Origin: a virus
Lineage: Duplodnaviria; Heunggongvirae; Uroviricota; Caudoviricetes
Strand: one strand, 5' to 3'
IMG/VR virus record: IMGVR_UViG_2645727640_000024
Length of the DNA: 7,986 nucleotides
A model generated the notes under the pieces. That model saw nothing but the letters and a program-made list of their open reading frames with translations. It did not search any database and was not told the origin of the DNA. Numbering within the stretch: position 1 is the first letter of the stretch; each line of letters begins with the position of its first letter. A program made the position numbers and the translations under genes. Shown here piece by piece: positions 1,444 through 3,387 of this stretch.

Positions 1444-1469
1444 ACAAAAAAAGCGCCTTATCGGCGCTT
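1444..1469 (-). terminator. Rho-independent terminator on the - strand (stem AAGCGCC/GGCGCTT, 5-nt loop, followed on the - strand by TTTTTTTGTTTG)
   Basis: Minus-strand reading: GAAGCGCCGATAAGGCGC then a U-tract of 7. It sits 11 bp downstream of the stop of the 1478..1747 (-) ORF. Confidence 0.6.
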
Positions 1470-1477
1470 CAAAAGTA

Positions 1478-1747
1478 TCAATTGTTGCTGTTTATTAATC
1501 GCCAACCACGAACATATGCTTCATAGGCATCTCTGTGCCTTACAGTTCCAGCCTGGCTAAACGGAATGTTAGCTAAAACTAAATCATTCTGAGCCATAGC
1601 GCGTCCTTCAAGCGCATCTTTTATGCCTAGCTCAAAAGCACAGGCAGCGCATTTGTGCCGACCTTCTTGTCCTTGATATTCAGGGAGAGACAGAAATGTT
1701 GGATTATAACGATGAGGGTTCTTGCAAATACCTGTTTTAGCCCGCAC
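1478..1747 (-). CDS. Hypothetical protein (89 aa with GTG start; alternative internal ATG start at 1597 giving 39 aa)
   Basis: ORF with GTG start preceded by GAGGT 7 nt upstream; ends 11 bp before a canonical - strand terminator. Composition is protein-like, but I recognise no family. Coding status is uncertain. Confidence 0.3.
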   Translation of the reverse strand: MRAKTGICKNPHRYNPTFLSLPEYQGQEGRHKCAACAFELGIKDALEGRAMAQNDLVLANIPFSQAGTVRHRDAYEAYVRGWRLINSNN

Positions 1748-1768
1748 TTTATTTACCTCATAGGAAAA

Positions 1769-1849
1769 ATATGCGTGCCTTTACAGAGGTGCGTGTAAGC
1801 AATAAAATATACGACGCACATTTTGATTTACTTCGGAAGGCACGCATAT
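1769..1849. repeat. 13-bp perfect inverted repeat (ATATGCGTGCCTT at 1769-1781 / AAGGCACGCATAT at 1837-1849) separated by 55 bp; inner GTGCGT/ACGCAC inverted pair at 1789-1794 / 1814-1819
   Basis: Read directly. Both arms contain ATG-CGT-GCC, so each strand has an ATG-initiated short ORF beginning MRAF. Confidence 0.6.
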
Positions 1850-1876
1850 CAGGTTAAGTGAGTCCGACCGAGTTTT

Positions 1877-1910
1877 ACGCCCCAATAGTTGCTGCTATTG
1901 GGGCGTTTTG
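1877..1910 (+). terminator. Intrinsic-terminator-like hairpin on the + strand (12-bp stem ACGCCCCAATAG / CTATTGGGGCGT, loop TTGCTG, then TTTTG)
   Basis: Perfect 12-bp stem followed by T4 on the + strand; on the - strand the hairpin is followed by AAAACT, so it is orientation-specific. It lies 20 nt after the stop of the candidate 28-codon + ORF (1771..1857). Confidence 0.45.
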
Positions 1911-1955
1911 CATGGACAATGCCGCGCAATTATCTTGTCGCTCACAATGCGAACG

Positions 1956-1983
1956 ATCTTACAAAAAGGCACATTACTGTCAA
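1956..1983 (-). promoter_or_regulatory. Candidate sigma70-type promoter on the - strand: -35 TTGACA (1978-1983), 16-bp spacer, -10 TAAGAT (1956-1961)
   Basis: Perfect -35 hexamer with a 4/6 -10 at correct spacing. It would drive leftward transcription through the structured leader into the 1478..1747 ORF and the 1444-1469 terminator. Confidence 0.3.
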
Positions 1984-2111: not shown

Positions 2112-2423
2112 TTACTCAGGAAATAACGCCCGGATATTCCCAGCCATCTGGCTGGTTATCTTAGCCACTGGTGCAGACTGTGCTTCAAACTTTTTTGAGC
2201 TGATTTGTGTCACAGGTAACATCTCATCATCAGCCCATGCGGCCAGTCGGTAAGCCTCTGCCGGATTCGTCTTCAGAAGTGCCAGCCCGGCCAGAAAAGC
2301 CACGCGTTGGCCGCTTTTGCGGGCTTCTGGTGTAAGGCTGTCCAGCCAGGCGCATGCTTCTCCTTCGTTCTTGACGGCGGCGGGCTTCAGATAGAAACTT
2401 ATCCGTCTGGTTGGTGTCGTCAT
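2112..2423 (-). CDS. parR: ParR-like small partition adaptor / DNA-binding protein (103 aa)
   Basis: ATG at 2423 lies 4 nt after the parM-like TAA stop and 7 nt after an AAGGAG Shine-Dalgarno. The track ORF starts earlier at a TTG inside parM and is probably not the real start. N-terminal region resembles plasmid R1 ParR as I recall it (RRxIxFxLxP, LxAGLAL, C-terminal LFPE). Confidence 0.65.
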   Translation of the reverse strand: MTTPTRRISFYLKPAAVKNEGEACAWLDSLTPEARKSGQRVAFLAGLALLKTNPAEAYRLAAWADDEMLPVTQISSKKFEAQSAPVAKITSQMAGNIRALFPE

Positions 2424-2427
2424 TGGT

Positions 2428-3387
2428 TTACTCCTTGTCCATTGCGTACAGCCCATTAACCAGAGCAAACTGTGGCACCCCGTCCGCGATGAAAGTCGCA
2501 TTAACTCCGCAGGCTTCGCGGATAGCGGGTGCCACAATCTCCGCCCCGCCACCGACAACCATCACCCGCCCGTAACCCGAAAAAACCGCCAGCGCGCGGA
2601 TCACGCGTTGTTTCAGTGTTTCTTCCTTTTCACGAATAACCGCCATCAGGCTGGCGTAATGCGCGTCATTGTGGATGTGCTGGCGCAGCCAGGCTTCATT
2701 ATGGCGATGTTCGATAATGGTATTGGCGATGTGGTGACTGGTGCGCATACCGTTAGTGGCCATCACCGACAGTACGGCATCGGCCATAAGAGAAACGCCT
2801 ACGTGTGGATCGCAAAACACCTGGCTGATACCTGCCAGTTGCCCCTGAACCTTTGCCACATCCAGCGTGGTTCCGCCCAAATCCACAATCAGCAGGGATT
2901 CAAACGGACTCATGTCAGCCAGTGCTTTAAAGCCAGCCGGAATGGATTCAGGCATAACCCGTACGTTACGGATAGTGAATGCTTCGCCGTTCTGGTACTC
3001 CACCGGGCGCATGACGTTCGCTTTTTTGCGGTTGATGTTGGCCATGTCCGGCTGTGCGTTTGTGTCGAAATATTCGCTCAGTGGCAGGGTAACAACCACA
3101 TCCACTTCCTGTGGCGTGATGTCTGATTTGACCAGCGCGTGATGAATGGCAATGACATTCACATCGCTGTACTGGTATTGCGTGTCGGTCGTCTGGACAA
3201 AGCGATCGCTGACCGGATCAAAACCATAGCGCACGCCATCAAGCATGTAGTTAGCAGGCTGCGAGCCACCGAACGGCGCAGACCATTCCGACTTGAAGCT
3301 GTTCGGGCTGATGGCGTTGCGGCGTTCGCCGTTCTCAGTCCATGCCAGCTTGATGTTGGTGGAGCCGTCGTCGATGTAAATTTTCAT
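2428..3387 (-). CDS. parM: ParM/StbA-family actin-like ATPase (319 aa)
   Basis: Actin-fold motifs shared with R1 ParM (R100 StbA): N-terminal IDDGSTNIKL (phosphate 1), LLIVDLGGTTLD (phosphate 2), VVGGGAE (adenosine), plus QYSDVNV, VMPESIPAG, LVNGLY. AAGGA 9 nt upstream of the ATG. Confidence 0.88.
   Translation of the reverse strand: MKIYIDDGSTNIKLAWTENGERRNAISPNSFKSEWSAPFGGSQPANYMLDGVRYGFDPVSDRFVQTTDTQYQYSDVNVIAIHHALVKSDITPQEVDVVVTLPLSEYFDTNAQPDMANINRKKANVMRPVEYQNGEAFTIRNVRVMPESIPAGFKALADMSPFESLLIVDLGGTTLDVAKVQGQLAGISQVFCDPHVGVSLMADAVLSVMATNGMRTSHHIANTIIEHRHNEAWLRQHIHNDAHYASLMAVIREKEETLKQRVIRALAVFSGYGRVMVVGGGAEIVAPAIREACGVNATFIADGVPQFALVNGLYAMDKE

Follow-up and report, generated by a model that had tools for sequence, protein, structure and literature searches.

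The window, a stretch of 7,986 nt, belongs to a P2-like prophage of Escherichia coli with the gene context portal, cos, 89-aa gene, StbB/ParM and gpA. The 89-aa gene is a "moron" that adjoins cos, and the 365-nt gap upstream of it holds an inverted repeat. The repeat region is part of the gene's 5' leader, which is ~200 nt long; the gene itself occupies 1478-1747 on the minus strand. The following features were assigned to the locus:

1450-1470, minus strand: intrinsic terminator closing the sense cassette (8-bp stem with 5 GC pairs, then TTTTTGTTT)
1478-1747, minus strand: 89-aa gene, the proposed regulated cargo, phrog_3941 (homology searches)
1739-1759, minus strand: translation initiation region with the Shine-Dalgarno GAGG at 1759-1756 and the GTG at 1747-1745 (sequence, pairing)
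1769-1781, minus strand: 3' arm of the long-range stem, left arm of the repeat; candidate RBS-masking sequence (repeat search)
1780-1808, plus strand: predicted antisense promoter, -35 TTTACA (1780-1785), 17 bp, -10 TAAAAT (1803-1808) (10/12 matches)
1789-1820, minus strand: inner hairpin GUGCGU / ACGCAC inside the long-range stem (folds)
1814-1911, plus strand: predicted antisense small RNA of ~98 nt (deduced from promoter and terminator)
1837-1849, minus strand: 5' arm of the long-range leader stem, right arm of the repeat (repeat search, folds, duplex energy)
1877-1910, plus strand: GC hairpin H2 and U-tract, predicted intrinsic terminator of the antisense RNA (repeat search, fold energies)
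1956-1983, minus strand: predicted sense promoter, TTGACA, 16-bp spacer, TAAGAT (10/12 matches)

The sense promoter is one of only two promoter-like sites between 1000 and 2600, and a sense leader on the minus strand would start at about 1949. The sense -10 box overlaps a GATC (1955-1958), and relatives carry TTGAnn-17-TAnnAT at the equivalent position. Three significant repeats are clustered in a span of 230 nt, and a second repeat, 11 bp long, flanks the sense promoter on both sides.

Searches with the 89-aa protein returned nothing in Pfam, NCBIfam and PADLOC and only phrog_3941 (function unknown) in PHROGs. A word-index protein search found near-identical matches only, and an exhaustive protein search unveiled a widely distributed, uncharacterised family with 173 representatives. 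The protein is hydrophilic (GRAVY -0.57), contains Cys and His and has no segment of membrane length; a confident AF2 model gives a soluble helical fold. In other phyla the cargo domain is embedded in DpnII/Dam restriction-modification cassettes, and the family is linked to GATC methylation systems. A literature search on the protein accession, on antisense RNAs of P2-like prophages and on DpnII-associated small proteins found no description, and the sense/antisense regulatory cassette discussed below is apparently undescribed so far.

The element is present at 99% identity or more in 166 of 5426 complete E. coli genomes (~3%). Throughout the E. coli and plasmid collection every copy was at least 99% identical or absent, so that close relatives provided no covariation and variation within the species is unable to test the inverted repeat. 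Single nucleotide differences among 37 E. coli copies avoid both repeat arms and both promoter boxes, the sole exception being an indel in the error-ridden record L005. Prophages of P22-like, lambdoid and P2-like type in Salmonella, Pantoea, Providencia, Proteus and Gilliamella carry homologous cassettes, and so does E. whittamii. The homologous genes have a common leader layout despite unrelated phage backbones. The cassettes adjoin cos in P2-like prophages, occupy the rexAB position in P22-like prophages and, in a Providencia phage, separate Q from the lysis genes; all of these are classic prophage cargo hot spots.

The inverted repeat and the small open reading frames

A repeat search confirmed the perfect 13-bp inverted repeat that a first, sequence-only reading of the locus had reported. 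Its arms, 1769-1781 (ATATGCGTGCCTT) and 1837-1849 (AAGGCACGCATAT), are 100% complementary over 13 nt and lie 55 nt apart. Folding of the 95-nt segment gave z = -5.4 for the minus and z = -4.9 for the plus strand, and the duplex energy of the long-range stem in the window is -23.2 kcal/mol (z -4.7 versus shuffles). Most likely, the inverted repeat forms a long-range stem within the untranslated leader that precedes the 89-aa coding sequence. The pairing had been attributed to the ends of a transcript; the stem instead joins two internal segments of the 5' leader. The inner hairpin has its arms on either side of the antisense -10 box and start of transcription, like hairpin H3 of the relatives, to which it is equivalent in position.

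The same reading had pointed out mirror-image small ORFs that both begin with MRAF. Translation of each strand recovered a plus-strand ORF of 28 aa at 1771-1857 (MRAFTEVRVSNKIYDAHFDLLRKARISG, then stop) and a minus-strand ORF of 29 aa at 1847-1758 (MRAFRSKSKCASYILLLTRTSVKARIFFL, then stop). The AGGA placed 5 nt ahead of the plus-strand ATG is read directly in the sequence, the TGA of the minus-strand ORF does overlap the GAGG Shine-Dalgarno (1759-1756) and end 10 nt before the GTG at 1747, and the hairpin behind the plus-strand ORF is present at 1877-1906, with a stem of 12-13 bp followed by TTTTG on the plus strand. What found no support is that these ORFs are genes. Neither is kept in any homologous leader, including those of the closest relatives (L119-L123), and where ORFs do occur in other leaders their sequences are unrelated to the MRAF ORFs. 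Since the repeat is conserved and the ORFs are not, an outcome that the earlier reading had itself tied to a purely structural element, the repeat is regarded as a structural RNA element.

The shared MRAF is explained by mimicry of the real start region, because the 5' arm (AT ATG CGT GCC TTC) resembles the true start AA GTG CGG GCT AAA, which encodes MRAK; the likeness is evident from a comparison of the start region GUGCGGGCU (1747-1739) with AUGCGUGCCU of the 5' arm. Judged from these sequences, the MRAF ORFs are by-products of start-region mimicry and not genes, and such mimicry can yield mirror-image small ORFs that are convincing yet spurious. It is very improbable that one or both of them are translated, either as a leader peptide or as a type I-like toxin, even though both are ATG-initiated and open over 28-29 codons, one is preceded by AGGA at 5 nt and the other ends at the Shine-Dalgarno of the 89-aa gene in a geometry that could couple translation. 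Besides the mimicry and the missing counterparts in L119-L123 and most other leaders, the position of the start codons argues against it: the plus-strand ATG (1771) lies upstream of the -35 box of the conserved antisense promoter and would therefore be absent from the predicted small RNA, and the minus-strand ATG has no Shine-Dalgarno and is base-paired inside the 13-bp stem. As had been noted from the sequence, the 28- and 29-aa peptides are not classic hydrophobic toxins, since both lack a hydrophobic stretch of membrane-spanning length, and neither gave a match in Pfam, NCBIfam, PADLOC or PHROG.

Predicted antisense promoter and terminator hairpin

The predicted antisense promoter sits on the plus strand between the two repeat arms, and its -35 TTTACA is the reverse complement of the invariant TGTAAA on the other strand. 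TTTACA or TTTACT occurs in all 47 distinct leaders, and TAnnnT with variable middle bases follows exactly 17 bp beyond it in all but five of them, namely four Citrobacter-type leaders with CACAAT and one Serratia leader with TACAAT at 18 bp. The -10 variants are TAAAAT, TACGAT, TAGACT, TAATCT, TAGAAT, TACAAT, TACTCT, TAGTAT, TAAACT and TAACCT. Between H2 and the 3' arm, the alignment of groups G2-G4 is invariant mainly at the -35 and -10 bases and at a GATC, and the key bases of the antisense promoter are the best-conserved leader positions in homologous cassettes. TTTACA and the spaced TAnnnT hexamer mark the predicted antisense promoter between the arms. A reading of TGTAAAG as a sense-strand RNA motif was rejected as less parsimonious than a -35 box, given the partner hexamer at a fixed 17 bp.

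An antisense RNA of about 100 nt would extend on the plus strand from roughly 1814 to 1911 and stop at the hairpin at 1877-1906. Its start was placed 6-8 nt past the -10 box and its end in the U-tract after H2, and the 5' arm of the long-range stem is fully complementary to it. The predicted plus-strand promoter between the arms and the conserved terminator-like hairpin bear out the earlier suggestion that the locus resembles small-RNA-regulated loci with overlapping antisense transcription.

The H2 hairpin (1877-1906) consists of a 12-bp perfect repeat with a loop of 6 nt. In the window its energy is -23.5 kcal/mol on the antisense strand versus -21.6 kcal/mol on the sense strand. Among relatives, too, it is usually more stable on the antisense strand, where it contains internal G.U pairs (five in L028); examples are L156 (-21.6 versus -12.1 kcal/mol) and L025 (-17.8 versus -9.9 kcal/mol). 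The U-runs after H2 reach seven in the Citrobacter-type group, and many relatives have weak U-tracts (UUUCCC or UUCCC). With UUUUG, the tract in the window is of marginal length, just under the rule of 5 T in 8 bases, and the terminator prediction that applies this rule did not flag the hairpin. Covariance models built without the window found H2 in it (R1, 17 bits, E 8e-4), and the best match of the window to the R2 model (22.4 bits, E 6e-4; 1852-1905, minus strand) is again H2. Six of eight H2 pairs covary. An Rfam search of the window with E values up to 1 gave sar (RF00262) and ctRNA_pGA1 (RF00236) as best matches, with 22 bits against gathering thresholds of 43-45; these sub-threshold matches (E 0.65-0.92) cover the H2 terminator hairpin only. 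The same search of six homologous loci gave no relevant matches.

The sense RNA would read through H2 as a passenger hairpin and continue with AAAAC. H2 was also considered as the terminator of the upstream ParM/StbB operon; this was rejected because the minus strand has AAAAC after it and because it lies downstream of the cassette's own promoter.

Conservation of the leader structure

The layout common to the homologous leaders consists of the sense promoter, the GC hairpin H2, the long-range stem and the invariant TGTAAAG. The leader family as defined here precedes genes of one family and has TGTAAAG 35-47 nt before the start codon and TAnnnT 17 bp away on the other strand. The window fits this definition: its TGTAAAG (1785-1779) precedes the GTG by 38 nt, and TAAAAT lies at 1803-1808.

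In the Salmonella/Pantoea group, RNAalifold predicted H2, the long-range stem and the inner hairpin. The consensus structure includes U.G pairs that are possible on the sense strand only; one arm position has U.G in 13 of 14 sequences, and at another U-A is changed to U-G in 5 of 14. Between groups the arm sequences differ yet remain complementary, bulges are tolerated and the enclosed spacing between the arms varies from 39 to 55 nt. Duplexes of an arm average -15.9 kcal/mol with its own partner and -10.1 kcal/mol with those of other groups. When 18 leaders were aligned by covariance model, a procedure that is fitted to the structure and so leans towards it, 92.6% of cells were paired versus 79.1% in shuffles and 15 pairs changed on both sides versus 7.8 expected, values that none of 500 shuffles reached. 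As to the covariation analysis that had been proposed as a check, the arms covary between groups, with five of nine long-range-stem pairs covarying. An ungapped register test of own against cross-group partners gave a weak separation (10.35 versus 9.08 of 14 pairs). The energy tests and covariance-model alignments were used because a cross-group MAFFT alignment, which was discarded, set the window's arm against the wrong helix and was 1-2 columns off between groups. In the Citrobacter-type group the antisense signals are kept, and the duplex test found no long-range stem.

Covariance models from relatives recognise only H2 in the window and not the inverted-repeat domain (6.8 bits, E 1.7; 1768-1841, minus strand), which is larger than that of the relatives (55 nt enclosed versus about 40) and unrelated to it in sequence. 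The equivalence of the window's stem to the stem of the relatives rests on its position and its own strength (z -4.7).

These data bear on two explanations in which the repeat is not an RNA stem. It might act as DNA, providing operator half-sites or a cruciform, with a protein that clamps or loops the antisense promoter between the arms. The almost symmetrical placement of the arms around this promoter, the further palindromes and GATC sites in which the locus is rich, the 11-bp repeat around the sense promoter and the tie of the cargo family to GATC methylation systems would all suit such a role. The arms of relatives, however, keep complementarity and not sequence, include U.G pairs that would be mismatches in DNA, tolerate bulges and vary in spacing, and a DNA-level role is therefore rather improbable.

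The repeat could also be a chance palindrome without function. When the 7986-nt window was shuffled with its dinucleotides preserved, only 10 of 1000 shuffles (1%) contained a perfect inverted repeat that measured 13 bp or more and had a spacer of 3-100 nt, and the E. coli copies offer no variation by which selection could be tested. Chance would have to account for a position that matches the covarying stem of the relatives and brackets a conserved promoter, as well as for three significant repeats within 230 nt, and is hardly credible.

A proposed antisense-controlled switch and its relation to known systems

The locus probably encodes a ~200-nt structured leader whose long-range stem brackets the promoter of a ~100-nt antisense RNA that controls the 89-aa gene. 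Computational analysis showed the stem and how it covaries among the relatives, together with the signatures of promoter and terminator; that both RNAs are made, and the direction and mechanism of control, we infer. The predicted antisense RNA is complementary to the 5' arm and not to the 3' arm, so that the leader could engage either in antisense pairing or in the stem. Without antisense RNA the stem would form, the 5' arm, which resembles the start region, would hold the 3' arm, and the RBS would be open. By binding the 5' arm, probably while the transcript is still nascent, the antisense RNA would free the 3' arm, which overlaps TGTAAAG (1785-1779). The freed arm would fold back onto the Shine-Dalgarno and GUG, and/or RNase III would cut the long duplex, and translation would be turned off.

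The alternative hairpin, in which the 3' arm pairs with Shine-Dalgarno and GUG, has -15 kcal/mol (z -2.45) in the window, and in a duplex test the same pairing did no better than chance (z -1.2, with 11.7% of shuffles as good). In relatives the corresponding pairing reached z -3.3, -2.4 and -2.2. Since this pairing is weak in the window and the stem (-23 kcal/mol) is far stronger than the alternative (-13 to -15 kcal/mol), the switch step is proposed here by analogy with the relatives, in which it is well supported; for the window itself the statistics are weak.

Stem and antisense pairing would exclude each other equally if the stem and AUAUUUUU were a transcriptional attenuator that stops the sense RNA before the ORF and is relieved by the antisense RNA, then an activator. 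UUUUU (1768-1764) directly follows the 3' arm, and several relatives have U-rich tracts past it, for example UUAUUUUUC in L014 and UUAUUUAU in L003. Such an attenuator is unlikely: the stem closes a 55-nt multiloop and has four A-U pairs beside the U-tract, which is atypical for intrinsic terminators, and terminator prediction did not flag it. Moreover, the U-tract is not conserved (GAAAAUGAUAU in L021), whereas pairing of the 3' arm with the Shine-Dalgarno and start is conserved in most groups.

If the proposed model is true, ~3% of complete E. coli genomes and likewise many prophages of Salmonella, Proteus, Providencia, Pantoea and Gilliamella contain a small RNA that has escaped annotation together with a structured leader, both absent from Rfam, and the two would control a protein family whose members are annotated as hypothetical and nothing more. 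With the cargo hot-spot position and the DpnII/Dam-linked domain, this would provide a handle on an uncharacterised function related to defence or methylation. A far-reaching extension, which is speculative and more doubtful than the switch itself, is that this undescribed, horizontally mobile decoy/masking switch of sense leader and internal antisense RNA gates a GATC-methylation-linked toxin or anti-phage effector of unknown fold that is silent in lysogens, and so represents a new type I-like toxin-antitoxin/abortive-infection family across P2-like, P22-like and lambdoid prophages.

The likeness to type I toxin-antitoxin loci suggested earlier stands for the predicted antisense RNA gene that overlaps its target mRNA, as judged in silico by the conserved -35/-10 pair and the conserved terminator hairpin, which forms better on the antisense strand. 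It fails for the toxin: type I toxins are small, usually under 60 aa, hydrophobic membrane peptides, which neither the 89-aa protein nor the small ORFs resemble. Since some type I toxins, SymE and RalR among them, are not membrane peptides, a soluble 89-aa protein is compatible with a type I-like system. Like hok/sok of plasmid R1 and aapA1/IsoA1 of H. pylori (PMC5416894), the locus is borne by a mobile element, has a predicted cis-antisense promoter inside the leader of the target mRNA, would set RBS accessibility by long-range intramolecular pairing and would form an extended duplex, an expected RNase III substrate. Unlike in these systems, the cargo is no short hydrophobic peptide but an 89-aa hydrophilic protein of a widespread family, and the stem lies inside the 5' leader instead of folding the 5' end back onto the 3' end. 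A 3' processing step is not evident, and the predicted antisense RNA overlaps neither the RBS nor the coding region.

Small phage-borne antisense RNAs that end in a strong terminator hairpin are likewise found in P22 (sar), lambda (OOP) and P1 (c4), with targets and architecture different from those described here. In the IS10 RNA-IN/RNA-OUT system, a promoter is Dam-sensitive and the start region of RNA-IN is itself the pairing target of RNA-OUT. The predicted face-to-face promoters, the predicted short stable antisense RNA and the GATC over the sense -10 box (1955-1958) are reminiscent of this system; unlike there, the predicted antisense overlap stops about 65 nt upstream of the start codon.

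In pT181, pIP501 and the Inc RNA of IncB/IncI-alpha plasmids, the antisense RNA binds an upstream leader segment, and the freed downstream segment forms an inhibitory structure. This logic of plasmid antisense attenuation matches the switch proposed here. The differences are that the inhibitory structure would mask the Shine-Dalgarno and start, with no terminator formed and no activating pseudoknot blocked, that the target is a prophage cargo gene and not a replication initiator, and that the step is statistically weak in the window. If true, the cassette would add an unusual twist to cis-antisense control, in which the antisense RNA removes a decoy of the RBS and never contacts the RBS itself.

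The cassette and its prophage context

The window belongs to a P2-like (Xuanwuvirus/P88-like) E. coli prophage, in which genes and predicted signals are arranged as follows.

Portal gene, + strand, ending at 992, first in the gene order
cos region, after the portal gene
1470-1450, predicted terminator past the 89-aa stop codon, the sense cassette end
1478-1747, minus strand, 89-aa gene, after the cos region
Intergenic region of 365 nt with the 13-bp repeat, between the 89-aa gene and StbB/ParR
1983-1956, minus strand, predicted sigma-70-like sense promoter, TTGACA-16-TAAGAT
StbB/ParR and ParM, then the gpA replication endonuclease, beyond the intergenic region

Of 5426 complete E. coli genomes, 166 carry the element at an identity of at least 99%, as do phages 520873 and 503458; it was not found in the plasmid collection searched. 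Other P2-like phages share no more than the first ~140-275 nt past cos, which makes the 89-aa gene and the stretch upstream of it variable cargo. The gene is a self-contained cassette, framed by the sigma-70-like promoter and the terminator. Some neighbouring features were observed besides. A plasmid-type ParM/StbA-StbB partition module (2112-3387, minus strand) between gpA and cos hints at a phage-plasmid lifestyle or at stabilisation of an episomal form. The AT-rich stretch 1985-2075, between the StbB end (2112) and the cassette and present also in L119-L123 (other P2-like elements), contains short direct repeats (AGATAATTGA / AGATAATAGA) and near-palindromes (ATCTGTTAAACA...), and could be a parC-like centromere for ParM/StbB or part of cassette regulation. 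Direct repeats adjoining the cos region (TTGTGCAAAC / TTGTGCAC at 1412-1445, also 1339-1352) fall in ~140 nt kept at about 92% across many P2-like phages and may serve as a binding array for terminase or a host factor.

The 89-aa gene is real and widespread. Its product matches phrog_3941 (function unknown, E 9e-49) and has no match in Pfam, NCBIfam or PADLOC, nor a fold match in PDB. An exhaustive protein search yielded 173 cluster representatives, mostly of 80-95 aa and publicly named "hypothetical protein" in every case, with conserved Cys8, His12, Gln25, Arg30-His31, Cys33, Cys36, an SQAG motif and Arg70-His71. Larger proteins carry the family domain fused to HNH_2, NOV_C, DndB or WYL. Close linkage to GATC methylation systems marks the family: within 3 kb of the gene, a Dam-type D12 methyltransferase was found in 43 of the 80 genome loci (L006-L085) and a DpnII-type restriction endonuclease in 29. 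One locus, L072 (1908-4891), shows the Pfam-based order Dam methyltransferase, small protein, DpnII endonuclease and second methyltransferase. In the 114-aa database variant P0002 (window 1747-1822, minus strand), a 1-nt leader deletion (TTCC to TTC) joins an upstream leader ORF (MCVVYFIAY...) to the 89-aa ORF; this is likely a sequencing or gene-calling artefact, by which the leader is occasionally mis-annotated as coding.

The inverted repeat and the predicted long-range stem

The sequence-only reading had described a perfect 13-bp inverted repeat and two small ORFs starting with MRAF. A repeat search and translation of each strand confirmed both, the fully complementary 13-nt arms lying 55 nt apart, and revealed two more perfect inverted repeats within 230 nt.

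1769-1781, left arm of the 13-bp repeat, ATATGCGTGCCTT
1837-1849, right arm of the 13-bp repeat, AAGGCACGCATAT
1877-1906, perfect inverted repeat of 12 bp, loop of 6
1927-1937/1981-1991, perfect 11-bp inverted repeat, CAATTATCTTG / CAAGATAATTG

Of 1000 dinucleotide-preserving window shuffles, 10 contained a perfect inverted repeat this long or longer (13 bp or more, arms no more than 100 nt apart), and the 95-nt segment folds well beyond its shuffles on both strands (z -5.4 and -4.9). The few SNPs in 37 E. coli copies all lie outside both arms and both promoter boxes, too few to carry weight; the sole exception is an indel in the error-ridden record L005. The 11-bp repeat flanks the sense promoter as the 13-bp repeat flanks the predicted antisense promoter; it is not kept in L120, one of the P2-like relatives, and a repeat of its length occurs by chance in about 15% of shuffles.

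Relatives at 50-63% identity occupy three kinds of prophage location.

L004, Salmonella P22-like phage, cassette at the rexAB position
L003, Providencia phage, cassette between Q and the lysis genes
L119-L123, other P2-like elements, flanks the same as in the window

Prophages of Proteus, Pantoea, E. whittamii, Gilliamella, Citrobacter and Klebsiella are further hosts. Despite unrelated phage backbones, the ~200 nt upstream of the gene have one common layout.

Sense promoter TTGAnn-17-TAnnAT
Small 5' hairpin
GC-rich hairpin H2, then AAAAC (window 1877-1906)
Long-range stem around a smaller hairpin, H3 (in the window the 13-bp repeat, with inner hairpin GUGCGU/ACGCAC at 1820-1815/1794-1789)
Invariant TGTAAAG, 34-47 nt ahead of the start codon (window 1785-1779, overlapping the 3' arm)
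Hairpin taking in the Shine-Dalgarno sequence

Because the arms lie on either side of the predicted antisense promoter, both are present only in the sense transcript. The sequence-only reading was wrong in having the repeat pair transcript ends. The long-range stem is a predicted RNA structure of the sense strand. RNAalifold predicted H2, the stem and H3 unaided from 14 Salmonella/Pantoea-type leaders; 13 of these have U.G at one stem pair, and five replace U-A by U-G at another; such pairs can form in the sense RNA only and not in antisense RNA or DNA. Between groups the arm sequences vary and complementarity is kept.

Arms of the long-range stem in the leader groups
Window: AUAUGCGUGCCUU / AAGGCACGCAUAU
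L120: GAGGUGUCAUCU / AGGUGA-ACACCUC
Salmonella: GAAUGUUUU / AAAGCAUUC
Homologous locus L147: GUUGCUUU / AAAGUAGC
Proteus: CAGGGUG / GCCCUG
Gilliamella: GGGCUUUA / UAAAGCCC

Arms bind their own partners at a mean of -15.9 kcal/mol, compared to -10.1 for those of other groups, and the z-scores against shuffled partners are -4.7 (window), -4.8 (L120 type), -3.5 (Gilliamella) and -2.0 for each of the two remaining groups; an ungapped register test separated own from foreign partners weakly. Leaders of the L120, Providencia and Gilliamella types are recovered (E 6e-5 to 2e-3) by a covariance model trained on nothing but the Salmonella/Pantoea group. In an 18-sequence covariance-model alignment, which, having been fitted to the structure, favours it, 92.6% of cells are paired (79.1% in shuffles, 35-49% with slid partners), 15 pairs are changed on both sides against 7.8 expected, with none of 500 shuffles reaching the observed values by any measure, and covariation affects five of nine stem pairs and six of eight H2 pairs. 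Applied to the window, the relatives' models detect only H2 (E 8e-4 and 6e-4), the inverted-repeat domain scoring 6.8 bits (E 1.7).

The predicted antisense RNA and its terminator

Read on the other strand, the invariant TGTAAA is TTTACA, followed in the window after 17 bp by TAAAAT (1803-1808). A scan of 1000-2600 for promoter-like sites listed just this one and the sense promoter, which places a predicted antisense promoter between the repeat arms. TTTACA or TTTACT occurs in all 47 distinct homologous leaders, and in 42 the hexamer at exactly 17 bp fits TAnnnT (TAAAAT, TACGAT, TAGACT, TAATCT, TAGAAT, TACAAT, TACTCT, TAGTAT, TAAACT, TAACCT); the exceptions are four Citrobacter-type leaders with CACAAT at 17 bp and one from Serratia with TACAAT at 18 bp. 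Retention of T1, A2 and T6 at fixed spacing with free middle bases is the hallmark of selection on a -10 hexamer. In a three-group alignment, the stretch from H2 to the 3' arm has hardly any invariant columns other than the -35 and -10 bases and a GATC.

Started 6-8 nt past the -10 box, the predicted RNA would reach H2 after about 66-76 nt in most relatives; in the window and the Citrobacter-type group the distance would be about 100 nt. H2 is its predicted terminator. On the antisense strand this hairpin usually has the greater stability, and internal G.U pairs there correspond to C-A mismatches in the sense RNA (-21.6 vs -12.1 kcal/mol in locus L156, -17.8 vs -9.9 in L025; five G.U pairs in L028). 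Its tail has U-runs of up to seven in the Citrobacter-type group, UUUUG in the window and merely UUUCCC in many relatives, a weakness of the terminator reading. Sense transcription should read through H2, since AAAAC follows it on that strand.

A second leader type of the same gene family (L025, L028, L043, L051 and L052, from Citrobacter, Klebsiella, Serratia and Dryocola) keeps the antisense TTTACA-17-CACAAT and a textbook antisense terminator, a hairpin trailed by as many as seven U; in four of the five loci its antisense form is 5-8 kcal/mol more stable than its sense form. Neither a long-range stem nor ribosome-binding-site masking was detected in these leaders, so that the predicted antisense RNA appears more universal than the stem.

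GATC sites were also observed in the control regions. In the window they cluster at 1955-1958, 1991-1994 and 2035-2038, one overlapping the sense -10 box (TAAGATC) and one just upstream of the -35 box. Three groups of relatives (loci among L003, L004, L006-L021 and L124-L164) have an invariant GATC ~5-8 nt into the predicted antisense RNA, often with a second within the antisense promoter spacer; these leader sites are missing from the window and L119-L123. The clustering suggests that Dam methylation controls these regions or that the cargo protein binds them.

Start-region mimicry, the proposed switch and known systems

The predicted antisense RNA is complementary to the 5' arm and does not include the 3' arm; stem and antisense pairing are thus, computationally, mutually exclusive. 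In the absence of this RNA, the stem would hold the 3' arm and leave the ribosome-binding site free. If the RNA paired with the 5' arm, which would most plausibly happen on the nascent transcript ahead of 3' arm synthesis, the 3' arm would fold onto the Shine-Dalgarno/start region; RNase III might also, or alternatively, cut the ~95-bp duplex. For relatives, the alternative hairpin comes out as significant (z -3.3, -2.4, -2.2) and lies close in energy to the stem (e.g. -15.3 vs -14.5 and -17.8 vs -17.3 kcal/mol). In the window, GGCACGCAU...UUUCCU with AGG...GUGCGGGCU reaches -15 kcal/mol (z -2.45 as a fold), far weaker than the -23 kcal/mol stem and no better than chance in a duplex test (z -1.2), so the switch step there rests on analogy. 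It is improbable that the stem and the following UUUUU instead attenuate sense transcription. Masking of the ribosome-binding site by a 3' arm freed by antisense RNA is a tentative proposal; the combination of leader stem and antisense RNA is moderately probable.

A 3' arm able to pair with the start region requires a 5' arm resembling it. The window arm AU AUG CGU GCC UUC compares with the true start AA GUG CGG GCU AAA (MRAK), the Gilliamella arm AUGGGCUUUA copies the start AUGGGUUAUU, the Salmonella-type arm GAAUG copies GAAUG, and the Proteus and L120 arms imitate the Shine-Dalgarno sequence. Through the palindrome, the same ATGCGTGCC recurs on the opposite strand, hence both ORFs starting with MRAF. 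As genes the small ORFs did not hold up: the closest relatives and most other leaders have no counterpart, ORFs occurring elsewhere are unrelated in sequence, and the ATG of the + strand ORF lies upstream of the predicted antisense -35 box, that of the - strand ORF inside the stem without a Shine-Dalgarno sequence. Neither peptide has a membrane-length hydrophobic run.

What stands of the sequence-only reading is an antisense-regulated locus, as a prediction. An RNA family search assigned it to no curated family. We propose cis-antisense control in which the antisense RNA would remove a decoy of the ribosome-binding site and not itself cover that site. Its logic would be like the antisense-driven attenuation of pT181/pIP501-type plasmids. 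The cargo is not the short hydrophobic peptide usual among type I toxins. The architecture would work like two type I toxin-antitoxin loci, hok/sok and aapA1/IsoA1 (PMC5416894 for the latter), where folding of the mRNA controls its translation.
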